From: Anaerolineae bacterium
GTDB lineage: Bacteria; Chloroflexota; Anaerolineae; Anaerolineales; E44-bin32
Length of the DNA: 64,000 bases
NCBI GenBank assembly: GCA_011174825.1
Contig: DUEZ01000064.1
Span: 17,512-81,511, forward strand
Reading direction: 5' to 3'
Shown here: piece after piece, positions 33,574 through 59,573 of the stretch
Layout of the letters: each line of letters opens with the position of its first letter
How positions within the stretch are numbered: position 1 is the first letter of the stretch
Made by a program: the position numbers and the translations under genes
The notes under the pieces: generated by a model
The model's input: the letters and a program-made list of their open reading frames with translations, nothing else
Databases searched by the model: none
Told to the model about the DNA's origin: nothing

Positions 33574-33574
33574 C

Positions 33575-35047
33575 ATGACTGATCTTACTGATCTCACCCT
33601 TCTCGAGGCCGCTGCCGCACTCCGGTCTGGCGATGTCTCCTCTCGCGAATTAACACAAGCCTGTCTTGATCGCATTGAGGACCTCGAACCCAAAATCCAC
33701 GCCTTCCTCTCCCTCACACCCGACCTCGCGCTGAAACAGGCTGAAGATGCCGATCGGCAGTTGTCAGAGTGGCGAAGGGAGGGAGTTGACCCGCCTTCGC
33801 CCACATGGGGAATACCCATGGGTATCAAGGATGTGCTGTGTCTCGAGGGCGTACCGACCACCTGTGGTTCAAAGATCTTGGAGGGCTTCCGACCTCCCTA
33901 CACTGCCACGAGTGTGGAGAGATTGATCGACGCGGGTGTGGTGGTGTTAGGAAAAACCAATACCGACGAATTTGCCATGGGATCCTCCACTGAGAATTCG
34001 GCCTACGGTTCGACCTTCAATCCATGGGACCTTACACGTGTACCAGGAGGATCCTCGGGAGGATCAGCGGCCTCCGTGGCCGCCAACATGTGTTATGCCG
34101 CCTTGGGCACCGACACCGGAGGATCCGTGCGTCAACCGGCTTCTTTCTGCGGCGTCACAGGGATAAAGACCTCGTACGGTCGCGTTTCCCGTTACGGGCT
34201 TATCGCCTATGGCTCATCGTTGGACACCGTCGGCGCACTGGCCCACTCAGCGGCGGACTTGCTCCCGATATTTCATACCATCTCAGGTCATGACCCACTT
34301 GACTCGACCTCCATGCCCGAGCCCGTACCCCATGTCGCGCTCGACGGCACAGACCTCACTGGTCTCCGAATCGGTGTCCCAAAGGAATACTTCATCGAGG
34401 GGATGCAAGGGGAGGTCGAAACCGCGGTCCATGATGCGGTGCGCATTTTCGAAGCCTTGGGGGCTGTCGCCTGTGAGATCAGTCTTCCACATACCGACCT
34501 AGCCCTGCCGGTGTACTACATCATCGCTCCGGCTGAGGCCTCCGCCAACCTGGCGCGTTACGACGCCGTTCGTTATGGACCCCGCATCGAGGCCGAAGAC
34601 CTGCGTGGGCAGTACTTCGCCACGCGAGGTGCCCTCTTCGGTCAGGAGGTCAAACGCCGAATCATGCTCGGAACATACGCCCTCTCCGCCGGCTATTATG
34701 ATGCTTATTACGGACAGGCGCAGAAGGTTCGCACCTTGATCAAAGGTGACTTCGAATCCGCCTTTAAGGAGGTGGATCTCATCGCCTGCCCTGTGGCCCC
34801 AACAACTGCTTTCCGCATGGGGGAGCACAGCGAAGATCCACTATCGATGTACTTGGAGGACGTGTTCACACTACCGGCCAACCTGGCCGGAGTACCTGGC
34901 ATCGCCTTCCCGGTCGGCTTCGATTCAGATCGCCTGCCGATCGGGATGCAACTCAACGCTCCTCATTTAGGGGAAGCGATACTCTTCCGAGCAACATATG
35001 CCTACCAGGAAGTCACATCCTGGCATAAGGAGCGTCCATCGCTATGA
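33575..35047 (+). CDS. gatA: Asp/Glu-tRNA amidotransferase subunit A (amidase signature)
   Basis: GGSSGGSAA and GTDTGGSVRQPA amidase-signature motifs. The start is ATG 33575, one nt after the gatC stop. Confidence 0.92.
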   Translation: MTDLTDLTLLEAAAALRSGDVSSRELTQACLDRIEDLEPKIHAFLSLTPDLALKQAEDADRQLSEWRREGVDPPSPTWGIPMGIKDVLCLEGVPTTCGSKILEGFRPPYTATSVERLIDAGVVVLGKTNTDEFAMGSSTENSAYGSTFNPWDLTRVPGGSSGGSAASVAANMCYAALGTDTGGSVRQPASFCGVTGIKTSYGRVSRYGLIAYGSSLDTVGALAHSAADLLPIFHTISGHDPLDSTSMPEPVPHVALDGTDLTGLRIGVPKEYFIEGMQGEVETAVHDAVRIFEALGAVACEISLPHTDLALPVYYIIAPAEASANLARYDAVRYGPRIEAEDLRGQYFATRGALFGQEVKRRIMLGTYALSAGYYDAYYGQAQKVRTLIKGDFESAFKEVDLIACPVAPTTAFRMGEHSEDPLSMYLEDVFTLPANLAGVPGIAFPVGFDSDRLPIGMQLNAPHLGEAILFRATYAYQEVTSWHKERPSL

Positions 35048-36371: not shown

Positions 36372-36499
36372 GATATGCTATTCGCGATCTGTGATGAGCG
36401 GTCGACATTGGCCCTCGCATTGGCATCTCGTCAAACTCATCTTAACCGTCTGGATTTCCACATTAATAAATGGGAACACTGATAAAGGAGCGAGATTGT

Positions 36500-37660
36500 A
36501 TGCGTGACTTCATCGCCCGTCGTGTCGCTAGCGTTCCACCCTCGGGTATTCGGCGCTTCTTTGACATCGCAGCCACCATGGATGATGTCATCTCTCTAGG
36601 GATTGGGGAGCCGGATTTCATCACACCACTACCGATCCTCGAAGCAGGCATCAGATCCCTTCAGCATGGGGAGACACACTACACCTCCAACTCCGGCATC
36701 CTAGAACTCCGCCAATCGCTTTCCTCTCATCTGAATCGCCTCTACAACGTCCATTACGATCCTAAAAATGAGCTCCTGATCACCGTTGGCGTCTCGGAAG
36801 CGCTCTACTTAGCCCTCACCGCCGTCGTTGATCCCGGCGATGAGGTCATCATACCCACGCCGTGCTTCGTGTCTTATCAGCCAGAGGTGATCTTCGCCGG
36901 TGGTACACCCGTATCGCTTAAGACCCGCGTCGAGGACGACTTCCGGATAGATGCCGATCGATTGGAGTCCTTGATCACCCCAAAGACCAAGGTCCTGATG
37001 ATCGCCTACCCCAATAACCCAACTGGCGCCGTCATGTCCCGCGATCGTCTGAAAGCCGTGGCCGACATCGCCGAGAAGTACGACCTTTTGGTCCTGTCCG
37101 ACGAGATCTACGACCGGTTGGTCTATGGTGACCATAAGCACGTGTGCTTTGCCTCCCTGCCCAGAATGAGGGAACGCACCATCACACTGGGAGGGTTTTC
37201 TAAGGACTACGCCATGACGGGTTGGCGTGTTGGATACGCCGCAGCTCCAGCTTCCATTCTGGATGCGATGCGTAAAGTGCATCAGTACACCATCATGTCC
37301 GCACCAACGATGTCCCAGATCGCCGCGCTGGAGGCTTTGACCAACGGCGAGGAGCATGTACAGGAGATGGTCGGGGAGTACGATCGTCGTCGTCGCCTGA
37401 TCGTGTCCGGCTTGAACGAGCTAGGACTGCCCACCTTCGAACCCCACGGTGCTTTTTATGCCTTCCCCAACATCGAAGCCAGTGGGATGGACGACGAGAC
37501 TTTCGCTGAGAAGCTACTTCACGAAGAGCGTGTGGCGGTGGTGCCAGGTAACGCTTTCAACGCCGAGGGGAATTTTGTCCGCTGCTCCTATGCCACCTCC
37601 TACGAGCAGATCGAGGAGGCGCTCGAGCGCATGCGACGCTTTATGAAGCGCTATGGTTAA
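36500..37660 (+). CDS. Class I/II pyridoxal-phosphate aminotransferase (aspartate aminotransferase-like)
   Basis: GGFSKDYAMTGWRVGY (PLP-lysine region), plus GEPDF and NPTG motifs. The start is ATG 36500, after aaaggag. Confidence 0.85.
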   Translation: MRDFIARRVASVPPSGIRRFFDIAATMDDVISLGIGEPDFITPLPILEAGIRSLQHGETHYTSNSGILELRQSLSSHLNRLYNVHYDPKNELLITVGVSEALYLALTAVVDPGDEVIIPTPCFVSYQPEVIFAGGTPVSLKTRVEDDFRIDADRLESLITPKTKVLMIAYPNNPTGAVMSRDRLKAVADIAEKYDLLVLSDEIYDRLVYGDHKHVCFASLPRMRERTITLGGFSKDYAMTGWRVGYAAAPASILDAMRKVHQYTIMSAPTMSQIAALEALTNGEEHVQEMVGEYDRRRRLIVSGLNELGLPTFEPHGAFYAFPNIEASGMDDETFAEKLLHEERVAVVPGNAFNAEGNFVRCSYATSYEQIEEALERMRRFMKRYG

Positions 37661-37776: not shown

Positions 37777-39243
37777 ATGCCCAAATTTGAACCCGTCATC
37801 GGCCTAGAAGTACACGCCGAACTAGCGACCTTGTCGAAGATGTTCTGCGGGTGCCCGGTCGTGGATTCCACCAGCGCCGAACCCAACAGTTCGGTATGTG
37901 AGATCTGCACCGGCATGCCCGGAACTTTACCCGTAATCAACCAGCGGGCAATTGAGTACGCGCTGCGCGTGGCACTGGCCTTGAATTGCAATATCGCTGA
38001 AACCAGCGTTTTCGCCCGCAAGAACTACTTCTACCCCGACCTCCCCAAAGGATTTCAAATCTCACAGTATGAATTGCCGCTGGCACAAAACGGTTGGCTG
38101 GATTTTGAAACCGAAAATGGGGAGCGGAGAATTCGGATACGACGCGTCCACCTTGAGGAAGACACCGGAAAGCTGCTGCATCGCGAAGGGTATTCACTCG
38201 TGGATTTCAACCGCTCCGGTGTTCCTTTGCTCGAGATCGTCAGCGAGCCCGATATGCGGTCGACCGAAGACGTCAAGGTCTTCGCCACTTCTTTGCGTTC
38301 GATACTCCGTTATCTCGAGGCCAGCAGCGGAGATATGGAGAAGGGAGCGGTTCGCTTCGAGGCGAACATCTCCCTCCGTCCATTGGGAACGGAGGGCTTA
38401 GGCACCCGCACCGAGGTCAAGAATCTCAATTCATTCAGGGCCATGGTTAAGGCCCTCGATTACGAGATCGAGCGTCAGGATCAGATCCTTGCAGGGGGCG
38501 GGGAGGTGAAGCAGGAAACCGTCGGTTGGGATGAAGTTCGCGGTGTCACTGTATCCCAACGAGGCAAGGAGGAAGCTCACGACTATCGCTACTTTCCCGA
38601 GCCCGACCTACCGCCGTTGCATATCGACCCTGCGTGGATTGACCGGATACGGATTGAGCTTCCGGAGCTACCAAGCGAGAAAAAAGCACGCTTTGTGAGC
38701 GAATACCATCTGACCCCCTATACTGCGGACCTCCTAGTTGAAGAGCGAGCGGTCGCCGATTATTTCGAGGTCGCAGTCGCTCATGACCCTGACACTTCAC
38801 CGACCAAGATCGCCAACTGGCTTACCGGAGAGTACTTCAGCCTGCTCAACCTGGCTGGGGTCGAGATTGATCAGTCTAAAGTGTCCCCCCAATCCTTCGC
38901 GGAACTGGTGGCGATGGTCGAGCGAGAGGACATCAACGCCACCAGCGGAAAAGAGGTGCTGGAAGTGATCTTCGAAACCGGCGACTCACCGATTGAGATC
39001 GTCGAGTCGAGGGGGTTGGCGCAACTTAACGATCCACAAGCGATCATGGATCTTGTGAACCAAGTGTTAGCAGAGAACCCGAAGCAGGTTGAGCAATACC
39101 TTGCAGGCAAGACCACCATCTCTCAATGGCTGTTCGGTCAGGTGATGCGTGCTGCTGGTGGTAGAGCCAACCCTGCGCTGTTACGCACCAATCTCGAGCA
39201 GGCCCTGAAAATTCTGGAGGAGAGTTGCAGGTCTGGAGGGTGA
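37777..39243 (+). CDS. gatB: Asp/Glu-tRNA amidotransferase subunit B
   Basis: 488 aa. IGLEVHAEL, KMFCGC, RKNYFYPDLPKGFQISQ and the C-terminal YqeY-like tail are present. Confidence 0.92.
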   Translation: MPKFEPVIGLEVHAELATLSKMFCGCPVVDSTSAEPNSSVCEICTGMPGTLPVINQRAIEYALRVALALNCNIAETSVFARKNYFYPDLPKGFQISQYELPLAQNGWLDFETENGERRIRIRRVHLEEDTGKLLHREGYSLVDFNRSGVPLLEIVSEPDMRSTEDVKVFATSLRSILRYLEASSGDMEKGAVRFEANISLRPLGTEGLGTRTEVKNLNSFRAMVKALDYEIERQDQILAGGGEVKQETVGWDEVRGVTVSQRGKEEAHDYRYFPEPDLPPLHIDPAWIDRIRIELPELPSEKKARFVSEYHLTPYTADLLVEERAVADYFEVAVAHDPDTSPTKIANWLTGEYFSLLNLAGVEIDQSKVSPQSFAELVAMVEREDINATSGKEVLEVIFETGDSPIEIVESRGLAQLNDPQAIMDLVNQVLAENPKQVEQYLAGKTTISQWLFGQVMRAAGGRANPALLRTNLEQALKILEESCRSGG

Positions 39244-39676
39244 GACTCGTCACTTGACGCTCCATGATTACGGAAGTATGGTGCATTTGAAAAGACGGGT
39301 ATTATGCTGCCGCTTACCTGCACTGATCAACCTAGATTGCTTGATGGCTTCACGAATGCAGACGCCTACAAGAACTTCACTCAGGACTCTCTTTCCTGCT
39401 TGCAATCTTTGAATCATTTAGGACGGCTACGAGGTACTTCGGTAGCCTTGTAAGGAGGCAGTAAGATCTTCTTTGGGTTTAACACGCCCCCAATGGTCTG
39501 ATGATCTAAGGGGTCTACTTTTGAGGCCCATCTATGTCTTGGTTAGGTTTGAGATTGAGCGGTACTCAGGTTGGATGTATAAAATGTATTTTCTCTGTTA
39601 TGTTGCTGGTGTTCTCCTTTAGATCTGGCATACCCCCTGTCAGCGCCCAGATAACCCCACACCAAGGATCTCACCC

Positions 39677-40162
39677 ATGCGGATATCGATAAGTGAAATT
39701 AACCAACTGATTTCCCAGGAAATGGCCGGAGATGGCTCATTGATTGCTGTGCTGGAGGAAATTCAACAGCGCTACCGCTACCTACCGCGTGAGGCGCTGA
39801 TCCTGGCAAGTGAACGGTTGGATGTACCACTATCACAAGCTTACGCCGTCGCCACCTTCTACAACGCTTTCAGTTTGAAACCGAAAGGAAAGCACTGTTT
39901 GCAAGTGTGCATGGGGACAGCCTGTCACGTGCGCGGTAGTCCGCAAGTTCTGAACCGAATTGAAACCACACTCGGGATTGCGGCAGGCGAAACGACTCCT
40001 AATATGTTGTTCACTTTGGAGACAGTCAATTGCTTGGGAGCATGTGCACTGGGACCCATCGTCGTGACGGATAGTGAATATTCTGGACAGATGACCGTGC
40101 AAAAGTCAGACATGCTCTTGAAGCGAATTATGAGGGCAGAGGAAGTTAAAAAGGATGGATAG
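39677..40162 (+). CDS. NuoE/HydC-like thioredoxin-fold [2Fe-2S] protein
   Basis: 161 aa. CLQVCMGTACHVRG...CLGACALGP gives four Cys in the NuoE/24-kDa pattern. Confidence 0.8.
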   Translation: MRISISEINQLISQEMAGDGSLIAVLEEIQQRYRYLPREALILASERLDVPLSQAYAVATFYNAFSLKPKGKHCLQVCMGTACHVRGSPQVLNRIETTLGIAAGETTPNMLFTLETVNCLGACALGPIVVTDSEYSGQMTVQKSDMLLKRIMRAEEVKKDG

Positions 40163-42011
40163 GATCAACTCGGCTGCCGACTTTGACAAGTTACGCACAA
40201 GGTTGAAAAGTGATTACGCCCCTGATCATCCTTGGATCACCGTGTGTGGTGGCACGGGTTGTCGTGTATATGGGAGCGAAAAAGTATGGAACGCGTTTCA
40301 AGACGAGATCGCAAACAAGAACTTGAAAGCCACGCTCACGTACGATCTGAAGATGACCGGCTGTCATGGCTTTTGTGAAAAAGGACCCTTGGTTGTCATC
40401 CGCCCCATGGGGATTATGTATACCCATGTACAAGTTGGAGATGTGCCCGAGATCGTTGCTGAGCTGGCGAATGGCAGAACCGTTGAGCGTCTACTGTATA
40501 GCGACCCCAACACCGATGAAATGATCGAGCATGAGCACGACGTGCCATTTTACAAACATCAGCAACGTCTGATTCTCAATCTCAATGGGATTCTCGATCC
40601 TTTTCGGATTGATGAATACATCGCTCTGGGTGGCTACACTTCGCTTGAAAACATTCTTTGCTCTATGCCACCTGAACAGGTCATCGCTGAGATCAAAGCC
40701 TCCGGTCTGCGTGGACGAGGTGGTGCTGGCTACCCCACCGGCTTAAAGTGGGAAATGTGTCGTAAACAGCCGGGTGAGATCAAGTATGTGATCTGCAATG
40801 CGGACGAGGGTGACCCCGGCGCCTACATGGATCGTTCGATTATGGAAGGTAACCCCCACCGCGTCCTGGAAGGCATGACCATCGGGGCGTATGCCATCGG
40901 CGCATCTCAGGGCTACGTCTACATACGCAACGAGTATCCCCTTGCGGTTAAACACCTGCGTCAGGCGATCATGCAAGCGCAGGAGTATGGCTTCCTTGGA
41001 ACGGACATCCTCGGATCTGGGTTTGACTTCAACGTGAACATAAAGCTCGGCAGTGGCGCGTTCGTTTGCGGTGAAGAGACCGCACTGATGGCCTCCATCG
41101 AAGGGCGCGTTGGCGAACCGCGCCCTCGTCCCCCTTACCCAACTACGGCGGGTTTATGGGGACAACCAACCAATATCAACAATGTCAAGAGTTGGGCTTC
41201 GGTACCCATCATCATCGAGAGAGGGGCGGATTGGTACGCCAATGTTGGAACTGAAACCAGCAAGGGCACAATGATCTTTTCGGTCGTTGGCAACATCAAC
41301 AACACCGGGCTGGTTGAAGTACCGATGGGTATCTCTCTGCGCGAATTGATATTTGAAATTGGCGGCGGTATTCCGAACGGCAACACGTTCAAAGCAGCTC
41401 AGATCGGTGGACCATCTGGTGGGTGCATCCCTGCCCAACATTTAGATACACCCATTGACTATGAGTCTCTTACCGCCCTGGGAGCCATCATGGGCTCCGG
41501 TGGGTTGGTCATTGCCGATGAGGACACCTGTATGGTGGACTTTGCCCGCTATTTCATGAAATTCACCCAGGATGAATCCTGCGGAAAGTGCGTACCGTGC
41601 CGTATCGGCACAAAGGCCATGCTCGAAACATTGGAAAGGATCTGCGCTGGCGAAGGTCAACTGAGCGATATCGATTATCTCTTAGAGTTGGGTGAAGAGG
41701 TAAAACGCTCCTCTTTATGCGGTCTGGGACAGACCGCTCCTAATCCGGTGCTTTCGACCATCCAGTATTTCCGCGATGAATATGAAGCCCACATCGTCGA
41801 TATGACCTGCCCGGCTAAGGTTTGCAAGGCGCTGATCACCTACTCGGTCATCGAAGAGAACTGCACGGGCTGCATGGTTTGCCTGCGTAATTGCCCGAGC
41901 GACGCCATTACCGGTGCCAAGCAGGAAGTGCATGTAATCGACGCCGGGTTGTGTACACGCTGTGGGATGTGTATAAGCGTATGTAAATTCGATGCGATTC
42001 TCGTTACCTAG
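40155..42011 (+). CDS. NuoF/HydB-like NADH-binding FMN/FeS subunit with N-terminal 2Fe-2S domain and C-terminal 2x[4Fe-4S] ferredoxin domain
   Basis: 618 aa. GLRGRGGAGYPTGLKW, NADEGDPGAYMDR, ESCGKCVPCR and C-terminal CTGCMVCLRNCP...CTRCGMCISVC are present. Confidence 0.85.
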   Translation: MDRINSAADFDKLRTRLKSDYAPDHPWITVCGGTGCRVYGSEKVWNAFQDEIANKNLKATLTYDLKMTGCHGFCEKGPLVVIRPMGIMYTHVQVGDVPEIVAELANGRTVERLLYSDPNTDEMIEHEHDVPFYKHQQRLILNLNGILDPFRIDEYIALGGYTSLENILCSMPPEQVIAEIKASGLRGRGGAGYPTGLKWEMCRKQPGEIKYVICNADEGDPGAYMDRSIMEGNPHRVLEGMTIGAYAIGASQGYVYIRNEYPLAVKHLRQAIMQAQEYGFLGTDILGSGFDFNVNIKLGSGAFVCGEETALMASIEGRVGEPRPRPPYPTTAGLWGQPTNINNVKSWASVPIIIERGADWYANVGTETSKGTMIFSVVGNINNTGLVEVPMGISLRELIFEIGGGIPNGNTFKAAQIGGPSGGCIPAQHLDTPIDYESLTALGAIMGSGGLVIADEDTCMVDFARYFMKFTQDESCGKCVPCRIGTKAMLETLERICAGEGQLSDIDYLLELGEEVKRSSLCGLGQTAPNPVLSTIQYFRDEYEAHIVDMTCPAKVCKALITYSVIEENCTGCMVCLRNCPSDAITGAKQEVHVIDAGLCTRCGMCISVCKFDAILVT

Positions 42012-42045
42012 AAATAGGACACCGAACGCCGTGGGCGAGGTGGAA

Positions 42046-42735
42046 ATGATCCGATTGACAATTGATGAAAGGCCCATCGAAGTTCCTGAGGGGCGGACGA
42101 TATTAGAAGCTTGCCGTGAGCACGGCATCCACGTGCCAACCTTTTGCTACCATCCGGCTCTCGAGCCCTATGGCGCCTGCCGATTGTGCATGGTCGAATT
42201 ATCCCAACCGACGCGCCCGCCACGTCTGGTAGCGGCCTGCACCTATCCTTGCGAGCAGGGAGCTATTGTGTCAACAGACTCCGAGTCCGTACGACGCAGT
42301 CGGCGCATGTCCGTTGAACTGCTCTTGGCGGGGGCATTCAACGATCCGGAATTGCTCGCTCTGGCAGAGGAATTGGGGTTGGAAGAAGTACGCTTTAGGT
42401 TACCCGAGGAAGACGCTTGTGTGCTATGCGGCCTCTGCGTGCGCGCCTGCGACGAGATCGTCGGAGTCAGCGCGATCAGCTTGACCAATCGAGGGATCTC
42501 AAAAGAGGTCAGTCCACCTTTTCGGATCGTGTCGCCTACATGCATCGGTTGTGGTACGTGTGTTCTGATATGCCCGACCGGCGCACTTAAGCTGAACGAC
42601 GTTACAGGCTTTCGCAGTGTCCATCTTGTAGACTCTGAATACGATCGTGTGTATTGCCAAGTATGCGATGACTTGGATTTAAAACCTAGTTTGATCCAAG
42701 ATCTCGAGGTGCTGTCATCAAAACATACCGCCTAA
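42046..42735 (+). CDS. NuoG/HydA N-terminal-like FeS protein ([2Fe-2S] plus [4Fe-4S] clusters, no catalytic domain)
   Basis: About 229 aa from ATG 42046. TFCYHPALEPYGACRLCMVE (2Fe-2S ferredoxin-like) is followed by CVLCGLCVRACDE and CIGCGTCVLICP. Confidence 0.75.
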   Translation: MIRLTIDERPIEVPEGRTILEACREHGIHVPTFCYHPALEPYGACRLCMVELSQPTRPPRLVAACTYPCEQGAIVSTDSESVRRSRRMSVELLLAGAFNDPELLALAEELGLEEVRFRLPEEDACVLCGLCVRACDEIVGVSAISLTNRGISKEVSPPFRIVSPTCIGCGTCVLICPTGALKLNDVTGFRSVHLVDSEYDRVYCQVCDDLDLKPSLIQDLEVLSSKHTA

Positions 42736-42824
42736 ACTATCGATCAACAGGAAACCTGATCAAGCGTCTATTAGGAGCATTTGCAAGGGAAGCAATTTGA
42801 CCCACATGTAGACAAGGTTAATCG

Positions 42825-44945
42825 ATGGCTGAAGAATTAATTTCGCACATTGACACTCGAGAAAATAAGCCTGCGGCGCGTATTGGGATCGTTGTGTGTG
42901 AATGTGGCGACAAAATTGCCGGTGTATTAGCTACCGATCTCCTACGTGAGAGAAGCGCCTCGCTGCCCGGTGTCGTCTATACCATGAGCGAACCGTACCC
43001 ATGCAATGTCGATGGTCGATCTCGTCTCAGTCAAGCGATTATCGACCACAAACTGGAACGTGTACTGATCGCTGGATGCGCTCCACGTCTGGTGGAACAT
43101 CTATTCCAACAAATAATGGAGGAGACTGGCCTGGCAGGGTGTTACTTGAGCGTAGTTGACATCCGCGAGCAGTGCGCTTATGTCCACGCAAGCGACCCCG
43201 CTGCTGCAATGGAGAAAGCCACGAATTTGATCAAAATGGGTGTGGCGCGTTTGACGGAGATTGACCCGCCTCAAACTTTCTCCAGTGATGTTGTCAAGTC
43301 GGCCATGGTGATTGGCAGCGATTTGAGCGGTTTGACGGTGGCCCTTGCATTGGCAGATGGCGATATCGACGTATCGCTGGTCGAAAGGGACAGCCAATTG
43401 GGCGGAACGATGTACATGCTGCAAGATGGCGCCAAGGAATTGATCACCGAGAGCGTCGATGTGGTCTCGAAACACCCTCAAATCCAAACCATGTTGAACA
43501 CCCGCGTAACGGACGTGACCGGGCAGTCTGGGAACTACCAAGTACTTCTCGCACGGGATGATCAGAACTTTGAACTAAATGTTGGTGCAATCATCCTGGC
43601 TACTGGTGTGCGACCCAAAAGTCTGGATCCCAATTACTGGTATGACCGCTCGCTTGTGGTATCACAAATTCAGTTTGCACACGAGCTTGAAAAAACAACC
43701 GCTGCCAATGGCCAATTAGCATTGCACGATGTGGTGATGATCTTCCACACAGAAGATACCGAGGGTGGAGGTAGTTCTCACCTGAGTTGTGTGGCCGGGA
43801 TACGCCAAGCAATACAGGCCAAACAGCTCAACCCTGACATCAATGTCACGATACTCTTTCGCGATCTATATTTGGGTGAGGCTGGTGGGTCAGGCGAAAA
43901 TCTGCTCTTACAAGCAAAAGATTTGGGTGTTAATTTTTTCCGTTACCGAAAAAAACACCCTCCTTTCATTGGCGGTAAATACATCAAGGTGGACGATCCA
44001 CTGACCGACCAGCCTTTACAAATACCTTGTGACCGCGTGGTTCTAACCACACCATTGATACCACAGGACAATACCAGCGCGTTAGCGGCGATGCTACACC
44101 TGCCTCAGGATAAAAAGGGGTTCATCATCGATAGGCGTACACGTCTTCGACCAGGTAATTATGTCGACGATGGTATTTTTGTAGTTGGCGGAGTACATTA
44201 TCCAACCGACACAGCGGAAGCATTGCTCCAGGCCCATGTAACCGCTGCGCGCACACATCGCTTTCTAGGGAAGGACACGCTCACCACCGCAGGACTACGG
44301 GCCGAAATCGACCCCGCTTTATGCACAGGGTGTGGAAACTGTCCTCAAGTTTGTCCAACCTCCGCCATCACGCTTGAGAAGCGCGATGGTTTGTTGTCCC
44401 TGGCCACCGTGGATTTGTTGCGCTGTATTGGCTGTGGCAATTGCCTCGTGGTTTGCCCGGTCAAGGCCATTTCACTTCCAGGGTATGGCGATCCAGCAAT
44501 CCTGGCACAAATCAGCGCCGCCTTGAGTTCAACGGGAATGGAAAAAGAGGTCGAGGGAATTGACAAGCCTGTTCCAAAGATTGTGGTGTTTGCATGTGAG
44601 TGGGGCGCATATGCTGCGGCCGATATAGCCGGCGCCAGGCGAATGTCCTACCCCGCTGATGTGCGCATCATCCGCATGAATTGTTCGGCCCGATTTGACC
44701 CCAATCACGCATTATGGGCCTTCCTCAATGGGGCAGACGGTGTGCTTGTGGGTGTTTGTCAAAAGGGAGAATGTCACTACGGTAACGGGAATCTGTACGC
44801 AGAAGAGCGCGTGGCAACACTGAGAAAACAACTCGCAGAACGTGGTTTCGATCCACGTCGCCTACGTTTAGAATCCTTTGCGACCGACGATGGATTTGCG
44901 TTCGCAAATACGATGAAAACTTTCAGCAATGAGATGAGAAAGTAG
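42825..44945 (+). CDS. HdrA-like FAD/FeS oxidoreductase fused to a C-terminal MvhD/FlpD domain (QmoB-like architecture)
   Basis: 706 aa. The HdrA-type segment is VLIAGCAPRLVEH...DIREQCAYVH. The Rossmann-like segment is AMVIGSDLSGLTVALALA...LVERDSQLGG. The ferredoxin pair is CTGCGNCPQVCP / CIGCGNCLVVCP. The C-terminus VVFACEWGAYAAAD...IRMNCSARFD...GVLVGVCQKGECHY is MvhD-like. Confidence 0.75.
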   Translation: MAEELISHIDTRENKPAARIGIVVCECGDKIAGVLATDLLRERSASLPGVVYTMSEPYPCNVDGRSRLSQAIIDHKLERVLIAGCAPRLVEHLFQQIMEETGLAGCYLSVVDIREQCAYVHASDPAAAMEKATNLIKMGVARLTEIDPPQTFSSDVVKSAMVIGSDLSGLTVALALADGDIDVSLVERDSQLGGTMYMLQDGAKELITESVDVVSKHPQIQTMLNTRVTDVTGQSGNYQVLLARDDQNFELNVGAIILATGVRPKSLDPNYWYDRSLVVSQIQFAHELEKTTAANGQLALHDVVMIFHTEDTEGGGSSHLSCVAGIRQAIQAKQLNPDINVTILFRDLYLGEAGGSGENLLLQAKDLGVNFFRYRKKHPPFIGGKYIKVDDPLTDQPLQIPCDRVVLTTPLIPQDNTSALAAMLHLPQDKKGFIIDRRTRLRPGNYVDDGIFVVGGVHYPTDTAEALLQAHVTAARTHRFLGKDTLTTAGLRAEIDPALCTGCGNCPQVCPTSAITLEKRDGLLSLATVDLLRCIGCGNCLVVCPVKAISLPGYGDPAILAQISAALSSTGMEKEVEGIDKPVPKIVVFACEWGAYAAADIAGARRMSYPADVRIIRMNCSARFDPNHALWAFLNGADGVLVGVCQKGECHYGNGNLYAEERVATLRKQLAERGFDPRRLRLESFATDDGFAFANTMKTFSNEMRK

Positions 44946-45027
44946 GTGGAGAGACCATTTACCAAAACCACCTCATGTCAAGATTTTCTGGTATAACCAC
45001 GACAAAAACTGGAGGAAAGAGGTCAGG

Positions 45028-46194
45028 ATGTCGAAACGATTAGAATTGGAGGTTTGGTCGCAAGACAACTGCGCCGGATGCGGCTTATGTGTGGCGGCTT
45101 GCTCAAAGCAAGTCTTGTACTGGAATGGCGGCAATCACCCCGTCGTAGAAAAGCGCAGCAAGACCATTGGCTACACCCAAATACCCCTCGATAGCTGTAC
45201 TTTTTGCCAGGTGTTCTGTGAGGAAGTTTGCCCACGATTCGAGCATTGGGCTCCCATCGAGCCCTTAACCATTTTAGCAGCGCGAGCCCATGGTCCGGTT
45301 AAATCGGGAGCACCCAATGACGTGATCCGAAGCATCCTCGCCGCCGGGCGCAACGCAGGTTTAATAGACGGTGTGGTGATGCTTGATCTTGATCCATGGG
45401 ATCTCAAACCCGTCGCGCGCGTTGTCTCAACGGTTGAGGAGATCGTGGAAAGCGTGGGGCCTCAATACCTATGGGCGCCCATCTTCGATGTCCTCAATAC
45501 TGCAATCTACGATCGGGCCATGGAAAATATCGCCGTGGTGGGCACGCCTTGTACAGCGCAGGCCGTCCGTAGGATCAAGGCGTCTCCGAAAACCCTTTTA
45601 CGGAAATATCAAGAGGCCATCCGGTTGAGCATCGCCGTTTTCTGCACGGGTGTCTACCGACCAGAGTTGATCGATGAGATCTTGGTCAAGCGGATGGGAA
45701 TCCCGCGCGATCAAGTCAAGCGGTTGGAGGTTTCCGCTGATCACGAGCAGATGCGTGTTTTGTTATGGAACGGTGAGGAGCACACCCTTCCCCGCCAACT
45801 TGCCGAAAGCTATACCCTTACAGGATGCGGTAGTTGCGATGATTACCTGGGTGAGTCGGCGGACTTGGCCGTTGGTACCCTAGGTGCGCCGGAGGGTTCC
45901 TCCACAGTCATCATTCGCACCCATGTTGGTGAAGTTTTCGCCCGCAACGCCGTCCAGATGAATCTCTTGGCAACAAGTCTTGATGTGGATACAGCCATTC
46001 TGGAAACCGCTGCTGGCGAAAAAGATCGGCGCGAGCGAGCTCAGGCTTTCAAGGATCTACAAATCTTGATGCTTGATGCCCTGGCCGATCCCGCCCAACG
46101 CGGTGAGGCCATTCAGCAATTCGTGCGGTTGTATCGGACACCAACCAGATCTACCTCACCCGAGAGATCCCGTAATAGCTGTACGGGATGCTGA
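45028..46194 (+). CDS. FrhB/FdhB/FpoF-family flavin-FeS protein (coenzyme F420 hydrogenase beta-like)
   Basis: 388 aa. N-terminal CAGCGLCVAAC and CTFCQVFCEEVCP are followed by VVGTPCTAQAVRRIK and a C-terminal GCGSCDDY region typical of the FrhB family. Confidence 0.7.
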   Translation: MSKRLELEVWSQDNCAGCGLCVAACSKQVLYWNGGNHPVVEKRSKTIGYTQIPLDSCTFCQVFCEEVCPRFEHWAPIEPLTILAARAHGPVKSGAPNDVIRSILAAGRNAGLIDGVVMLDLDPWDLKPVARVVSTVEEIVESVGPQYLWAPIFDVLNTAIYDRAMENIAVVGTPCTAQAVRRIKASPKTLLRKYQEAIRLSIAVFCTGVYRPELIDEILVKRMGIPRDQVKRLEVSADHEQMRVLLWNGEEHTLPRQLAESYTLTGCGSCDDYLGESADLAVGTLGAPEGSSTVIIRTHVGEVFARNAVQMNLLATSLDVDTAILETAAGEKDRRERAQAFKDLQILMLDALADPAQRGEAIQQFVRLYRTPTRSTSPERSRNSCTGC

Positions 46195-46246
46195 ACACCG
46201 ACAGACGGATCAATGTTGAGAAAATGGTTCGCTGAGAGGGACAACC

Positions 46247-46897
46247 ATGACCGTGATAAATGCAAAAGCCAAGGACCTTAAAACGATAAGCCGCAAATTA
46301 AAAGAGAGCTTGAATGAAGAACCTATTGAGGTGACGAACGCAAGCCACCTCCATGGATTGGTTGCTGGGTTAAAGCACGGTGAAGTCATCATCCAGGGTA
46401 ATGCTGGGGATTACTTCGGTGTTTTGAACGCTGGCGCTACGATAAGGGTTACTGGAGACGTTGGCAACTATACAGCAGACAACATGACTTCCGGCACGAT
46501 TATCGTGGAGGGTAACGCTGGCTATGGTGCTGGTCAGTATTGTTATGATGGCGCGGTAATTATCTACGGTGATGCGGGCGATTTCACGGCGACCATGAAC
46601 AAGGGTGCCGTGATCATTGTCGTAGGCAACGTAGGAGATGAAACTGGTACCTATATGTTAGACGGTGACCTGGTTGTTGTTGGCGATGCAGGTGAGAATT
46701 TCGCAAATTTTGTAATCCGTGGCAATGTTTATATTGGGGGCAAATGGAAAAGTCTCGGTCACAACACTCGCGTTGAAGAACTGACCCAAGGCGATATCGA
46801 AAAACTCTCTGTCTATTTCCAAACTTATGACATCAAATCTGATCCTGTTGAGTTCAAAAAGATCGTGGCTGCGTCGGAAAAGCCATTCTACAAATAG
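46247..46897 (+). CDS. Glutamate synthase alpha-subunit C-terminal (GXGXG beta-helix) domain protein
   Basis: 216 aa of repeated G-x-a-G-x-x-x-G turns (IIQGNAGDYFGVLNAGATIRVTGDVGNYTADNMTSGTIIVEGNAGYGAG...). Confidence 0.8.
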   Translation: MTVINAKAKDLKTISRKLKESLNEEPIEVTNASHLHGLVAGLKHGEVIIQGNAGDYFGVLNAGATIRVTGDVGNYTADNMTSGTIIVEGNAGYGAGQYCYDGAVIIYGDAGDFTATMNKGAVIIVVGNVGDETGTYMLDGDLVVVGDAGENFANFVIRGNVYIGGKWKSLGHNTRVEELTQGDIEKLSVYFQTYDIKSDPVEFKKIVAASEKPFYK

Positions 46898-46906
46898 GAG
46901 GATAGA

Positions 46907-48478
46907 ATGACCGTTGTTGGCGCATTTTGTGTAAGTGTGAATAGAGAGGTTTGTATCAACTCACGTATGCCGGGAAAATGTGCGACGTGCGCTGAGGTCT
47001 GCCCACATGGTGTTTTTGCCCTCGATGCTTATACAGGTGAGATGAGAATCAGAAATTATAACGCCTGTGTAGGTTGCCGAATCTGCGCCGAATTTTGCCC
47101 GGAGGATGCAATTCGCATCAATCCGGCTGAGTCAGAATACATCGCACGCTTTCCATGGACATTGTCGACAGTTGAAGAGATCCACCACAAAGCTCAAACT
47201 GGTGACTACCTGTTGCGCGGGTTCGGCACCCAGCAGCCGACACCCCATTTCGACACGATCACTGTAGTTCCAAGCCAGATCGCCAGTCCTGAACCCCGGG
47301 ACAAATACCGTGAAGAGTGTGATTTGGAAGTGGTGATCGGTGAGGACACGTGTGAAAAACCCCTCCACCTCAAACTGCCGTTTGTATGGCCGGCCATGTC
47401 ATTTGGCGCGTTGAGCAAAGAAGCCAAGATGGCCTTGGCTATCGGTGCGGCTCAAACTGGTATTGCAACCAATACCGGTGAAGGTGGCCTTTTAGATGAA
47501 GAGATGTGGCTATCTCGTGGCTATGTCGATCAGAATTTCACCAAGAAAGAATGGGAGCCTGGTGGGTATTTGATCATCCAATGGTCCACTGGAAGATGGG
47601 GAGTATCTGCAGATTATGTCAACAATGGTGACGCGGTCGAAGTTAAGATCGGCCAAGGTGCAAAACCCGGCATGGGGGGACATCTGCTTGGCACAAAAGT
47701 GACAGAAGAAATAGCGCGGGTCCGTGGAATTCCAGTCGGTTCAGATGCGCTTAGCCCTTGCCGATATTACGATGTCCAAAACCTAGAAGATATGAAACAC
47801 ATGGTCGATTTCCTGCGCGATGTCACCAATTATCAATTCCCCATCCTTTTCAAGCTAGGACCTTCACGCCCCTATGATGATGTCGCTGCTTGCATCGAGC
47901 TTGGCGCCGATGCGATCAGCATCGATGGATTGGTCGGTGGCACGGGCTGCTCACCCGATATCGTTACACAAGGTGTGGGCATTCCTACCATCGCTTGTCT
48001 CCCCCCAGCTGTTCAAGCACTGAAGGATCACGGCGTCCATCGAAAAGTAAAACTGATTGCATTGGGGGGCATCCGCAACGGTCTGGATGCATTCAAGGCA
48101 ATGGCAATGGGAGCCGACGCGGTTGGTTTCGGCAGCGCAGCGGAGATTGCTATGGGCTGCCGTGTCTGCTACGCTTGCCAGAAGGGTAACTGTCCATATG
48201 GCATAACGAGTCAGAAACCCGAAATGCGCGCACGTCTTGACCCGATTGAGGTCGGGCAGCGGTTAGCAAATTTCATTCATGCCTGCGCTGAAGAGGTCAA
48301 AATTCTAACGATGCTTTCAGGCCACAATAGCATTTCCGACCTTTCGACCGAGGATCTGCGCGCGATGGACATGAACACGGCGGCTTTGACCGGACTAAAA
48401 TTAGCCGGTTATGATCGTCCATTGTCATTCTGGGAGGAGGGATACAAGCCTGTAGCCATGAAGGCCAACGGCAACTAG
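46907..48478 (+). CDS. Archaeal-type glutamate synthase FMN-binding domain protein with N-terminal 2x[4Fe-4S] ferredoxin domain
   Basis: 523 aa. CATCAEVCP / CVGCRICAEFCP is followed by EVKIGQGAKPGMGGHLLGTKV, SIDGLVGGTGCSP, LGGIRNG and the C-terminal GCRVCYACQKGNCPYG (3Fe/4Fe cluster region). Confidence 0.85.
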   Translation: MTVVGAFCVSVNREVCINSRMPGKCATCAEVCPHGVFALDAYTGEMRIRNYNACVGCRICAEFCPEDAIRINPAESEYIARFPWTLSTVEEIHHKAQTGDYLLRGFGTQQPTPHFDTITVVPSQIASPEPRDKYREECDLEVVIGEDTCEKPLHLKLPFVWPAMSFGALSKEAKMALAIGAAQTGIATNTGEGGLLDEEMWLSRGYVDQNFTKKEWEPGGYLIIQWSTGRWGVSADYVNNGDAVEVKIGQGAKPGMGGHLLGTKVTEEIARVRGIPVGSDALSPCRYYDVQNLEDMKHMVDFLRDVTNYQFPILFKLGPSRPYDDVAACIELGADAISIDGLVGGTGCSPDIVTQGVGIPTIACLPPAVQALKDHGVHRKVKLIALGGIRNGLDAFKAMAMGADAVGFGSAAEIAMGCRVCYACQKGNCPYGITSQKPEMRARLDPIEVGQRLANFIHACAEEVKILTMLSGHNSISDLSTEDLRAMDMNTAALTGLKLAGYDRPLSFWEEGYKPVAMKANGN

Positions 48479-48588
48479 TATTCCAGAGGAAAGATCATCT
48501 CGTGAATACATCCTGAAAGCTAGAATCACTCTGTTCAGTATAGCGTTTGTACTGCGCATTGTTTCTTAGACCTTGAAACGTCAAAGGT

Positions 48589-48616
48589 GGGTTGCTCGAT
48601 GCAACCCGTTGGTTTT
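48589..48616 (+). terminator. Candidate terminator after the redox/glutamate-synthase operon
   Basis: gggttgc-tcgat-gcaaccc, followed by gttggtttt. Confidence 0.5.
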
Positions 48617-48802: not shown

Positions 48803-50077
48803 ATGAAACCATTATCTGATGGAACCATTCCTCCCGAAGGAAGTGTGTACTGGATTGCCCTGAAGCAATTTGATGAAGCTGCGGACATTCTTAATCTGGA
48901 TGATGGTATGCGTGATCTATTGCGCCATCCCAAGCGCGAATTAACCGTGACCTTCCCTGTATGCATGGACGATGACTCACTGCGTATGTTCACCGGGTAT
49001 CGTGTTCATCATAATACTGTCCGTGGGCCAACAAAGGGAGGTATCCGCTACCACCCAATTGTGAATTTAGACGAGATACGCGCCCTGGCGATGTGGATGA
49101 CGTGGAAGTGCGCTGTTGTCAATATCCCCTATGGTGGTGCAAAAGGAGGTGTAATTGTCGATCCCGATGAGTTAAGCATTCATGAACTTCAAAGACTCAC
49201 CCGTCGTTTTGCTACGGAAATCTCCATTCTCATGGGCCCAGAAGGCGATATCCCCGCTCCCGATGTCAACACGAATCAACAGACCATGGCTTGGATCATG
49301 GACACGTATTCGATGCACAAGGGGTACTCCGTGCCAGCGGTTGTGACTGGTAAACCGATCGAGATCGGCGGAAGCATGGGCCGTCTATCGGCTACGGGTC
49401 GAGGTGTGATGATTACAACGCGCGAAGCACTCAAGATGCGAGGCAAGACCTATTCAGATGTAACCGTTGCGGTGCAAGGCTTTGGTAATGTTGGCTCGGT
49501 GGCTGCAGAGATAATGTCCGCCGAGGGTGCTACCATTGTTGCCGTATCCGACGCGTCTTGCGGTATTGCCAACCCCAAGGGATTGGATATCAAGGCCTTA
49601 AAATCCCATGTTGCTCAGAACAAGCTCCTAAAAGGTTTCCCTGGTGGCGACGTTATCACCAATGAAGAACTGCTGACGTACAAGTGTGATGTCCTTGCAC
49701 CGTGTGCACTGGAAAATCAGATCACATCAAAAATCGCTGATCGTGTGCAAGCATCTTTTGTGGCTGAAGGAGCCAATGGCCCTACAACCCCAGAGGCAGA
49801 TATCATCCTTGAGGATAAAGGTGTTTTCATCGTCCCTGATATCTTATGCAATGCCGGGGGTGTTACATCGTCTTACTTTGAATGGGTCCAGGATTTGCAA
49901 TCATTTTTCTGGACAGAGAATGAGATTGATGAGCGTCTTGAAAGAATTCTAGTGGAGGCTTTCCGCGATGTGATGGCCGAAGCAAAGAAACGCAAAGTTG
50001 GGAGACGTATGGCAGCACAATGTTTGGGTATAAAACGCGTCGCCGATGCAACAAGGGCACGTGGTATTTACCCATAG
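48803..50077 (+). CDS. gdhA: Glutamate dehydrogenase (Glu/Leu/Phe/Val dehydrogenase family)
   Basis: 424 aa. [18 protein letters not shown] (catalytic Lys region) and the GFGNVG dinucleotide fold are present. RBS is caaggag. Confidence 0.9.
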
Positions 50078-54199: not shown

Positions 54200-54583
54200 G
54201 ATTCCCTCCTTTCGTTCCCCGAGCGATGAATAATGATGTCCGCTGAGGAGCGAAGGTTTTTGTAGCTCAGTGAGCCGTATTTAGGTTGTTAATCATTGGC
54301 CCCGTGGAGGGCTTTTGCCGGAGATCCACGGGGCTTCTATGCAGATCTGTGGCAAGCGCATTTATGTTGCGCTTGCGGTACTCCGGCAGCTGGCTGTCAT
54401 GGCTTCTATCGAAACTTTAGACCCTGTAGCTTTGCGCCGTCGCCTTTCAGCGAGTTTGCCCTTTTCGGAGAAAATGTAAGTATTTTCTTACTTACATACT
54501 AACATAAGGGGTGGAAATACTGGCTAACAGCGGGCTTACGTATCACTTACAGGGAACTTGCACAACTGGATGAACTGATTTCG

Positions 54584-59527: not shown

Positions 59528-59573
59528 TGATAGTTCAACCTTTTTGTGGACTCACTCTTGAGCCAAAAAGCTG

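Follow-up and report, generated by a model that had tools for sequence, protein, structure and literature searches.

Enzymes of the electron-bifurcating Bfu family share a core that couples NAD(H) and ferredoxin, both on one side of the reaction, to a third substrate reached through the BfuA subunit (PMC9304861). In the Type-2 members BfuA consists of N-terminal NuoG/HydA-like iron-sulphur (FeS) domains only, with neither a His-ligated cluster nor a catalytic domain, and the site of the third substrate is held by extra subunits (Schut et al., 2022; PMC9304861). WorABCSL has been described as a bifurcating "plug" on its partner module (PMC12318220). The partners recognized in the survey of the family are hydrogenase, Fdh, Nfn, F420, Wor, Bam, Por, Codh, Mbh, Nuo and Rub; 18 clades are left unassigned there, and the word "glutamate" appears nowhere in it (PMC9304861). 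Bam-Bfu (BamBCDEFGHI) is the only described complex that joins BfuABC homologues (BamGHI) to an HdrA-like protein, BamE, and an MvhD-like protein, BamF (PMC9304861). An FrhB homologue beside archaeal-type glutamate synthase (GltS) genes has been predicted to form a glutamate synthase dependent on F420 (FGltS) in methanogens and anaerobic methanotrophic (ANME) archaea (PMC3448663; PMC3087415; PMC9012536). The seven-gene cluster described here lies at 39677-48478 on the + strand of a 64-kb stretch of one Anaerolineae genome (the window, to whose 64 kb all window-level negatives below refer). It encodes a Type-2 BfuABC module, an HdrA-MvhD fusion, an FrhB-like protein and a split GltS-like enzyme.

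The seven open reading frames (ORFs) of the cluster are, from their coordinates, separated by -8, 34, 89, 82, 52 and 9 nt. This is the same-strand arrangement reported in an earlier sequence-only reading of the window, and the domain content proposed there for each of the seven genes agrees with Pfam and NCBIfam profile searches of the window ORFs, which were accompanied by PDB sequence searches for homologues of known structure. From the gene content, protein families, cofactor motifs, synteny and one natural fusion, we infer a single soluble complex in which NADH and reduced ferredoxin, entering through the Bfu core, would drive the reductive amination of 2-oxoglutarate. Taken whole, this model stands at about an even chance. 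That the seven genes encode one complex is quite probable and that the chemistry is that of 2-oxoglutarate and glutamate is somewhat favored; the stoichiometry is proposed with less confidence than either. The model is supported by short or overlapping gaps, by synteny in 29 loci, by the fusion (found in an archaeal locus, L070), and by the invariance of the GltS substrate-site residues and the FeS cysteines.

To find relatives, an aligned set of FrhB-like homologues was used to scan GTDB species, each represented by one genome; this gave 64 loci (referred to by L numbers), and the ORFs called in these were compared with the seven window proteins. All seven genes occur in identical order in 29 complete loci from Chloroflexota species genomes. 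The remaining Chloroflexota loci are all cut by a contig end, each being consistent with the seven-gene order, and one locus in a metagenome-assembled genome (MAG) of Zixibacteria shows the first five genes in the same order, its contig ending after the fifth. Because the order is identical in 29 complete loci, the arrangement is not due to chance. Carriers include the cultured Longilinea arvoryzae KOME-1 (L018), many Anaerolineales MAGs and a "deep" Chloroflexota clade of about 50% identity. The window is collinear with, and about 88-89% nucleotide-identical to, two Anaerolineae/Anaerolineaceae MAGs (L003 and L004). Flanking genes vary between loci, and two independent exact-protein look-ups of Pfam-annotated genes gave the same picture of the cluster with different flanks. 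Median intergenic gaps across loci are -4, 9, 4.5, 41, 12 and 11 nt, with frequent start/stop overlaps, including one at the HdrA/FrhB junction in 7 loci; in the window itself gene 1 overlaps the start of gene 2 by 8 nt. The FrhB-like subfamily is compact (51 representatives at E <= 1e-30 vs 1723 in the wider family); the loci L050 and L051 are distant FrhB matches. The view that the seven genes form one unit, for which synteny elsewhere was the proposed check, is strongly upheld by the 29 complete loci, together with the natural HdrA-MvhD-FrhB fusion.

Loci of Bathyarchaeia, Asgard archaea and Geothermarchaeales keep the last four genes, which encode HdrA-MvhD, the FrhB-like protein, a GXGXG subunit and the GltS subunit binding flavin mononucleotide (FMN), the last about 60% identical to its bacterial counterpart. 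These loci have no NuoEFG. Their HdrA is a tandem form of ~1150-1200 aa with MvhD, and genes for HdrC and HdrB (CCG domain) adjoin the cluster in L042, L067, L068 and L070; a second FrhB occurs in L042, L056 and L070, and the flanks carry AsnC-type regulators or ELFV dehydrogenases. At every locus, bacterial or archaeal, HdrA-MvhD adjoins the FrhB-like and GltS genes irrespective of the other partner module. As the archaea keep the last four genes, with HdrBC in place of NuoEFG, the conserved core is HdrA-MvhD, FrhB-like, GXGXG and GltS-FMN, and the second module is interchangeable: HdrBC in archaea, NuoE, NuoF and the BfuA stub in Chloroflexota. In L070 a single polypeptide of 1584 aa (L070:3369-8123) comprises tandem HdrA, MvhD and the FrhB-like protein, a natural fusion that argues for physical association. 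The gene for this fusion is followed by those for GXGXG, a GltS-FMN protein without the ferredoxin domain, a second FrhB, HdrC and HdrB, and an ELFV dehydrogenase gene stands on each side.

The first three genes encode the proposed electron-input module. Gene 1 (39677-40162, +, 161 aa) encodes BfuC, a NuoE/HoxE-like, thioredoxin-like [2Fe-2S] subunit (2Fe-2S_thioredx, PF01257, E 1e-44), which in the PDB best matches C subunits of bifurcating enzymes with solved structures (7t2r_C, 8a6t_C, 7p5h_C and 9mqx_C). Gene 2 (40155-42011, +, 618 aa) encodes BfuB, a NuoF-like NADH-FMN subunit (Complex1_51K, NADH_4Fe-4S, 2Fe-2S_thioredx and Fer4) that, according to Pfam and the cysteine pattern, carries an extra thioredoxin-like [2Fe-2S] domain at the N-terminus and a 2x[4Fe-4S] domain at the C-terminus. 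It aligns over its full length with HydB of NiFe-Bfu (7t2r_B, E 5e-249) and also matches HydB of [FeFe]-hydrogenases (7q4v and 8a6t), NfnB (9n5u), 8oh5_B (deposited as HoxF, and presumably the StnABC entry) and the BfuB of Wor (9mqx_B). These matches to bifurcating enzymes score far above complex I NuoF. Gene 3 (42046-42735, +, 229 aa; the longest ORF begins at 41992) encodes a NuoG/HoxU-like stub of Type-2 BfuA (Fer2_4 and 2x Fer4), which has one [2Fe-2S] and two [4Fe-4S] sites, no His-ligated cluster and no catalytic domain; motif inspection of residues 69-125 found no Cys or His cluster motif. Its best PDB match, over the full length, is the 247-aa BfuA of WorABCSL (9mqx_A, E 2e-41), and its 12 cluster cysteines are invariant in 33 homologues.

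Since the best PDB matches of all three proteins are solved Bfu enzymes and the stub has no catalytic domain, genes 1-3 are assigned to a Type-2 BfuABC module. Having no catalytic domain, the stub needs partner subunits, and by analogy with characterized Bfu enzymes the module is predicted to couple NAD(H) and ferredoxin tightly to a third substrate. Given this identity and the precedents of Bam-Bfu and of FrhB beside GltS, the earlier statement that the cluster could be matched to no characterized enzyme was overstated. A variant of gene 2 is found in three deep-clade Chloroflexota relatives (L029:3920-7108; L033, 5558-7078; L031, 3-356), in which the NuoF-like protein, ~1060 aa long, has a C-terminal GltD/NfnB-like module (Fer4_20 and Pyr_redox_2) in place of the 2x[4Fe-4S] domain. 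This fusion may represent a form with an extra NAD(P)H port, and is a further link to glutamate synthase, GltD being the normal donor subunit of GltS.

Gene 4 (42825-44945, +) encodes an HdrA-like protein fused to MvhD (706 aa; Pyr_redox_2, Fer4 and FlpD). Searches of the PDB with phmmer match HdrA over residues 19-244 and 317-572 (9sfi_A/5odc_A) and MvhD over residues 583-704 (5odc_D, E 1e-30). The MvhD domain is also identified as PF02662 (residues 586-705, E 8e-41), and its [2Fe-2S] ligands C591, C620, C645 and C650 show no variation among 42 sequences. A model made with AlphaFold2 from 42 homologues (predicted local distance difference test, pLDDT, 83; predicted template-modeling score, pTM, 0.70) has as its top Foldseek matches the HdrA chains 5odc_A, 8rvy_A (TM score 0.68/0.74) and 7bkd_A, with TM scores of 0.68-0.74 for the last two. 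Both approaches indicate a thioredoxin-reductase-like fold with N-terminal [4Fe-4S] and C-terminal 2x[4Fe-4S] domains, as in HdrA, and the ligands of these clusters are kept (cysteines 25/27/60/85 and residues 500-544, respectively). The HdrA-like part is ~90 residues short relative to HdrA 237-398, and between residues 118 and 321 it contains no cysteine. The inserted ferredoxin domain that gives HdrA its route to ferredoxin is thus missing, as it is from an HdrA-like protein of the deep clade (L030).

The flavin site is altered as well. The GxGxxG motif that binds flavin adenine dinucleotide (FAD) reads GSDLSG in the window, with Asp at the second Gly, a residue that normally contacts the FAD pyrophosphate; among 121 close homologues this Gly is kept in 89, replaced by Asp in 22 and by Ser or Thr in 10. 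The flavin-proximal cluster motif, C...CSxVCC in HdrA, reads H...GSSHLSC in the window, where one of the four cysteines is kept (HTEDTEGGGSSHLSC); L003 and L004 keep three, and 87 of the 121 homologues all four. In HdrA, a Lys409/Glu356 pair sits at the flavin N5 (PMC12054007). The position of Lys409 is occupied by Arg327 in the window and by Arg in 104 of the 121 homologues, the region of Glu356 giving no alignment. The deep Chloroflexota clade and the archaea mostly have a canonical GGGxAG, and most of them keep the cluster cysteines and a Lys at the 409 position. The HdrA-like protein is the least conserved of the seven, with 35-55% identity where the others show 60-85%. No HdrB or HdrC (CCG-domain) partner is present among the scanned ORFs of the window.

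Because it has no inserted ferredoxin domain, one of four cluster cysteines and a GSDLSG motif, the protein of the window lineage is, judged from its sequence, most likely a decayed form, acting as FeS relay, scaffold or electron-transfer adaptor rather than as a bifurcating HdrA, and loss of the flavin is predicted. With this site degenerate, the coupling site in the window would likely be the NuoEF (Bfu) core. These same features give no support for extending to gene 4 the role of bifurcating-FAD carrier that the sequence-only reading cites for the HdrA of Mvh-Hdr. HdrA as a bifurcating flavoprotein was rejected for the window on its flavin and cluster motifs, and is still a candidate in the relatives.

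Gene 5 (45028-46194, +, 388 aa) encodes an FrhB-family flavo-FeS protein (Fer4 and FrhB_FdhB_N/C) laid out as in Fsr-N, FpoF and FGltS-alpha: a 2x[4Fe-4S] domain at the N-terminus precedes the FrhB flavin/[4Fe-4S] domain. In the PDB it best matches 8rja_E and 8riu_B, which we take to be FrhB/FdhB-type beta subunits from archaeal Fwd and CO dehydrogenase (CODH) complexes, followed by FrhB (9r51_B/3zfs_C) and Fsr (7np8_A). Of its 14 cysteines, the first 12 do not vary across 46 homologues. The last two (residues 385 and 388) form a C-terminal CxxC, in a C-T-G-C tail (46180-46194) that extends beyond the FrhB fold and is kept in 45 of the 46, archaea included; the tail might provide an inter-subunit cluster ligand or a redox-active dithiol.

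Genes 6 and 7 encode the synthase-like pair. Gene 6 (46247-46897, +, 216 aa) specifies a GXGXG beta-helix subunit (PF01493), the counterpart of the C-terminal domain of the GltS large subunit and of FwdC, with PDB matches to FwdC (5t5i_C) and GltS (7mfm_G and 2vdc_A). Gene 7 (46907-48478, +, 523 aa) specifies an archaeal-type GltS FMN subunit with an N-terminal 2x[4Fe-4S] domain (Fer4 and Glu_synthase, PF01645, E 6e-105). It aligns to residues 869-1197 of Synechocystis ferredoxin-dependent GltS (Fd-GltS, 1LLW) and retains E903, Q969, K972, R992 and E1013. Across 39 homologues from bacteria and archaea there is no change at the equivalents of E903, Q969, K972 and R992 or at any of the 12 cysteines, and the E1013 position holds Glu in 20 and Asp in 19. 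The three-Cys motif of the GltS [3Fe-4S] cluster is replaced by an invariant CxxCxxCxxxxCP (C418, C421, C424 and C429-P), which suggests a [4Fe-4S] cluster next to the FMN. The domain calls bear out the claim that this pair is the only catalytic end module of the cluster. There is no GltD among the window ORFs, the predicted donor chain being formed by the FrhB-like protein, HdrA-MvhD and Bfu, and no F420-related gene among those annotated. A glutamine amidotransferase gene near the cluster was rejected: none was found by PF00310/Pfam searches of the window ORFs, by six-frame searches for Cys1-type N-termini or in Pfam-annotated contexts, and in six frames neither the window nor any related locus has an MCG-start ORF of at least 200 aa.

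In the proposed mechanism, BfuB would bind NAD(H) at its FMN, and the BfuB/BfuC core would also trade electrons with ferredoxin. The BfuA stub would serve as the wire from this core to the partner subunits, and the HdrA-like protein as an FeS relay running through its N-terminal [4Fe-4S] and C-terminal 2x[4Fe-4S] clusters to the MvhD [2Fe-2S] cluster. MvhD is known as an adaptor that passes electrons from hydrogenase or FdhB to HdrA (structures 5ODC and 7BKB), and in the Fdh-Hdr-Fmd structure 7BKB FdhB reportedly contacts MvhD. The FrhB-like protein, with its flavin, [4Fe-4S] and 2x[4Fe-4S] centers, would dock on MvhD as FdhB does in that solved complex, and electrons would move on to the ferredoxin domain of gene 7, its four-Cys cluster and its FMN. 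In GltS, FMN reduces 2-iminoglutarate; at the FMN of gene 7, 2-iminoglutarate formed from 2-oxoglutarate and ammonia would likewise be reduced to L-glutamate, the GXGXG subunit acting as structural beta-helix partner of the synthase domain. At the canonical Bfu stoichiometry the reaction would be NADH + reduced ferredoxin + 2 (2-oxoglutarate + NH4+) -> 2 L-glutamate. The standard potential (E0') of the 2-oxoglutarate + NH4+/glutamate couple is about -140 mV. Glutamate is too weak to reduce NAD+ and ferredoxin together, and the canonical stoichiometry therefore permits only the reductive direction; amination would be strongly driven, independently of ATP and glutamine. A sink formed by glutamate dehydrogenase (GDH) and alanine aminotransferase disposes of electrons in Pyrococcus. 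By analogy, and speculatively, the complex could work with aminotransferases as a sink for NADH and reduced ferredoxin in fermenters. The archaeal version would follow the same logic, with GltS and FrhB at the MvhD (mid-potential) port of HdrABC. A 2-oxoglutarate/glutamate reaction linked to NADH and ferredoxin, in line with the NADH-driven and possibly ferredoxin-coupled complex of the sequence-only reading, stays the best interpretation; coupling at HdrA is unsupported in the window.

Several observations weigh against this interpretation. In most relatives the flavin motif and the cluster of HdrA look intact (89 and 87 of 121, respectively), and HdrA may be catalytically important in the family, with a mechanism differing between lineages. 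At the synthase site, the positions of E975 and Q978 are Met and His throughout the family (39 homologues), and the substrate could differ. No class-II (Ntn, Cys1) amidotransferase gene was found in the window or in ~46 related loci; because of this, the enzyme is probably not a canonical glutamine-dependent synthase (GOGAT), and is likely ammonia-dependent or served by a partner encoded elsewhere, an absence that the sequence-only reading left unmentioned and that changes the likely chemistry. As NADH by itself suffices to drive the reaction, spending reduced ferredoxin on it seems wasteful. An additional cofactor (F420 or another) could enter at the FrhB-like flavin, the back half then being self-sufficient; and the HdrA-FrhB junction has the longest spacers of the cluster (median 41 nt, up to 182 nt, with a single outlier of 1306 nt).

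An energy-conserving variant would be bifurcation or confurcation around the glutamate couple, in the form 2 NADH + oxidised ferredoxin + 2-oxoglutarate + NH4+ <-> glutamate + 2 NAD+ + reduced ferredoxin. Run backwards, it would let reduced ferredoxin pull the oxidation of glutamate to make NADH, as Ldh-Etf does for lactate. Branching would take place at the Bfu FMN or, in those relatives whose flavin site is intact, at the FAD of HdrA. The energetics are suitable, since the mean of about -500 mV for ferredoxin and about -140 mV for the glutamate couple is about -320 mV, the potential of NADH, and the couple at the high-potential end lies near that of the heterodisulfide which HdrABC reduces. 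The hosts live anaerobically by fermenting peptides and amino acids; ELFV dehydrogenases, AsnC-type regulators and aminotransferases recur nearby, and GxGxxG and the flavin-proximal cluster are retained in the HdrA of most family members. However, all characterized Bfu enzymes put NAD(H) and ferredoxin on one side, and this stoichiometry would be new for Bfu (PMC9304861). The Chloroflexota HdrA-like proteins examined (window and L030) also have no inserted ferredoxin domain to act as low-potential exit, the flavin motif and the neighboring cluster are degenerate in the window, and GltS and FrhB sit on the MvhD side, which is the mid-potential port of solved Hdr complexes. On this balance the variant appears unlikely. 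A division into two enzymes is improbable too: genes 5-7 would form a self-contained, FrhB-dependent synthase of FGltS type, using F420H2 or another diffusible cofactor, and genes 1-4 a separate NADH/ferredoxin oxidoreductase, possibly regenerating that cofactor and co-transcribed through a shared pathway. It draws on the prediction that an FrhB homologue and GltS work with F420 alone in methanogens (PMC3448663; PMC3087415), on a proposed F420-Bfu type (PMC9304861), on the HdrA-FrhB spacer being the loosest junction, and on the second, canonical FrhB beside the cluster in several archaeal loci. Yet HdrA-MvhD stands next to the FrhB-like and GltS genes in every bacterial and archaeal locus, is fused to FrhB in L070 and meets it in start/stop overlaps in 7 loci; MvhD, being an adaptor, has no substrate itself, and no F420 genes are annotated among the ORFs of the 64-kb window.

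There is finally the identity of the substrate to be considered, for the GXGXG/FMN pair might act on another 2-oxo acid, an imine or an amine, as in enzymes of N-methylglutamate-synthase type, which share the same domains. The family-wide replacement of Glu 975 by Met and Gln 978 by His would suit such a role, as would the lack of an amidotransferase subunit near the cluster, and relatives are named "methylamine-glutamate N-methyltransferase subunit C" in some sources, NCBI using only "glutamate synthase-related protein". Against it, E903, Q969, K972 and R992, which hold 2-oxoglutarate or the imine in Fd-GltS, are invariant, and three FeS clusters lead to the FMN, implying net redox chemistry; N-methylglutamate synthase needs no outside reductant. 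In three relatives NuoF is fused with a GltD-like module, genes for glutamate dehydrogenase and aminotransferase recur nearby, and the order GXGXG-ferredoxin-FMN is shared with the GltS of Ignicoccus (PMC2614490). A pair that does not form glutamate is given very little credence.

Signals for transcription around the cluster were sought by consensus scans. A promoter-like site, TTGACG-17-TATGGT (39254-39282, +; 9/12 matches), lies in the 433-nt gap between gatB and gene 1; such sites are not more numerous in the scan than in shuffled sequence, and the evidence is weak. After the last gene, a terminator-like hairpin (48586-48610, +) has a ten-pair stem followed by GGTTTTAACT, a consensus match only. 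It is the sole terminator-like hairpin in an intergenic gap of the cluster, so the claim that a terminator candidate occurs only after the last gene holds for the gaps; three weaker matches fall within coding sequence (42246, 45069 and 46517). Since the scan gave fewer terminator-like sites than shuffled sequence does (8 vs 12.3), little weight is given to it alone. An internal terminator or promoter between the HdrA and FrhB genes was rejected: the consensus scan found no promoter- or terminator-like site in the spacer 44946-45027, and the two genes overlap in seven relatives and are fused in one. A riboswitch or leader RNA upstream of the operon was likewise ruled out, as an Rfam search of 39200-39720 gave no element at E <= 1.

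Downstream lies gdhA (48803-50077, +), encoding an ELFV glutamate dehydrogenase of 424 aa (Pfam/NCBIfam), which is probably a separate transcription unit, and beyond it an S9 peptidase gene. Its position had been taken to reinforce a glutamate theme. The adjacency is absent from most Chloroflexota loci, gdhA being kept downstream only in the closest relatives L003 and L004, and gdhA was rejected as a member of the conserved unit. Of 43 loci, 13 have an ELFV dehydrogenase no more than 6 kb away, four archaeal ones among them (L042, L044, L045 and L056). The upstream neighbors are gatA, nucleotidyl transferase, aminotransferase and gatB, all on one strand, so that gatA (amidase, 33536-35047) and gatB (37777-39243) are parted by the nucleotidyl-transferase and aminotransferase genes. 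The class I/II aminotransferase gene (36470-37660, +; PF00155, E 2e-76) also stands upstream in 5 related loci and is a thematic neighbor only.

Two further gene sets flank the cluster in relatives. In 20 of 43 loci (L001, L008-L023, L029, L030, L033, L035 and L046) a GAF-HisKA-HATPase sensor kinase (~433 aa) and an OmpR-type response regulator (~249 aa) are encoded directly upstream of the NuoE-like gene and on the same strand, for example at L001:2483-4546. The pair is absent from the window and its nearest relatives; in the loci that have it, it suggests dedicated, small-molecule-responsive control of the operon. In 25 loci a conserved gene directly follows the GltS-FMN gene. In the close clade its product (845-865 aa; L001:13552-16134 and L018:13503-16094) has a Cys-containing N-terminal domain of ~170 aa without Pfam match and a PPDK_N ATP-binding domain, which comes without the phosphoenolpyruvate (PEP)-utilizer His domain. 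In the deep clade it is a homologue of the N-terminal domain only (~172-226 aa; L030:13467-13985). This protein may be an eighth component; tblastn found no homologue of it in the window.

Elsewhere in the window, a c-di-GMP-I riboswitch (RF01051, 75 bits, E 5e-13; 54382-54470, -) lies upstream of a 179-aa ORF (53660-54199, -) without Pfam match, and two tandem paralogues of 404 and 437 aa (29817-31031 and 31155-32468, -) combine AHSA1, PDZ and DinB_2 domains. A succinate dehydrogenase/fumarate reductase cluster (17393-20424) encodes an SdhA/FrdA flavoprotein, an SdhB FeS subunit and a small Sdh_cyt/Fumarate_red_C membrane subunit, the ORF for this anchor overlapping the end of sdhB. A response-regulator receiver is fused to an adenylate/guanylate cyclase domain (15815-16885, -), and a tRNA gene (15572-15645, -) lies just downstream on the same strand. 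The ORF at 63067-63966 (-) contains an ABC_tran ATPase segment and a C-terminal LytTR DNA-binding domain, and could be a fusion or a mis-called start; it lies upstream of an ABC-2 transporter cluster (58424-62798) on the same strand.

Nitrogen enters biomass through the formation of glutamate. To our knowledge, all characterized glutamate synthases use NADPH, NADH or ferredoxin singly, and FGltS has never been purified. A literature search, to which subscription journals were outside reach, found no paper on Bfu- or Hdr-linked glutamate synthase clusters and none on a bifurcating or confurcating glutamate synthase or dehydrogenase, several papers matching the keywords only through GltD-like Nfn subunits. 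If the proposal is correct, a synthase fed by the Bfu core with NADH and ferredoxin adds a high-potential third substrate to the Bfu family. A function would also be gained for a conserved operon of the Anaerolineae, which are abundant in digesters and sediments, and for its HdrABC-linked counterpart in Asgard archaea and Bathyarchaeia, whose Hdr paralogues largely lack assignment. It is conceivable, though doubtful, that the 2-oxoglutarate/glutamate couple is the third substrate of an undescribed and widespread bifurcating family, of which this cluster would be the first example, Bfu-linked in Anaerolineae and Zixibacteria and HdrABC-linked in Asgard archaea, Bathyarchaeia and other Thermoproteota. 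Were that so, nitrogen assimilation or glutamate fermentation would be energetically tied to the ferredoxin and NADH pools. Either energy would be conserved (NADH -> glutamate + reduced ferredoxin), or low-potential electrons would take the place of the ATP spent in the glutamine synthetase (GS)-GOGAT route. The family is also a natural series of HdrA flavin sites, retained, degenerate or differently partnered, that is useful for asking what makes HdrA bifurcate. As Longilinea arvoryzae KOME-1 is in culture, the hypothesis is directly testable.

Set against the described systems, the cluster shares with Mvh/Fdh-HdrABC (5ODC, 7BKB and 8RVY) the HdrA fold and the MvhD [2Fe-2S] adaptor, and its archaeal relatives also have HdrB and HdrC; in 7BKB an FrhB-family protein, FdhB, reportedly feeds MvhD. 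The window differs in having no HdrBC, no inserted ferredoxin domain, a degenerate cluster and flavin motif, and Arg at the position of Lys409. The GltS of Ignicoccus hospitalis (Igni407/Igni408) has the same order of GXGXG, ferredoxin and FMN domains and no GltB central domain (PMC2614490). By contrast, its class-II amidotransferase (GlxB) is encoded in an adjacent gene, which is absent from all loci examined here, and the present cluster adds a five-subunit Bfu/HdrA/FrhB electron-input chain. With FGltS it has in common an FrhB-family subunit of Fsr-N/FpoF architecture beside archaeal-type GltS genes (PMC3448663; PMC3087415; PMC9012536). FGltS is, however, proposed to draw directly on F420H2 and to use glutamine, whereas here the FrhB-like gene always follows HdrA-MvhD with Bfu or HdrBC, there is no amidotransferase gene and the host belongs to the Chloroflexota.

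On the side of the Bfu family, Nfn-Bfu (NfnABC) and StnABC resemble the relatives L029, L031 and L033 in pairing a Bfu core with a GltD-like NAD(P)H module; the window itself has no GltD-like domain, and the end reaction is not NADP+ reduction. The Type-2 Bfu enzyme WorABCSL of Acetomicrobium mobile (PDB 9MQX) shares BfuC, a BfuB with extra FeS domains and a short, FeS-only BfuA that hands electrons on. Known Bfu partners include tungsten aldehyde oxidoreductase, hydrogenase, formate dehydrogenase, Nfn, pyruvate oxidoreductase and CO dehydrogenase; in the window, in contrast, the partner is made up of HdrA-MvhD, the FrhB-like protein and the GltS domains, and the proposed third substrate is of high potential rather than near -400 mV. 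The cluster was rejected as a class II benzoyl-CoA reductase (Bam) for lack of a tungsten oxidoreductase or BamD-like gene. Compared with Bam-Bfu, the cluster has no tungsten BamB/BamC and no BamD, its HdrA-like protein has neither the inserted ferredoxin domain nor the flavin motif, its end module is GltS-like and no substrate of very low potential is involved. Its back end would work as an archaeal-type glutamate synthase does, the donor subunit being of FGltS type, minus the amidotransferase that defines GOGAT. The nearest described architecture is Bam-Bfu, in which Bfu, HdrA and MvhD are likewise combined and are joined to another end module.

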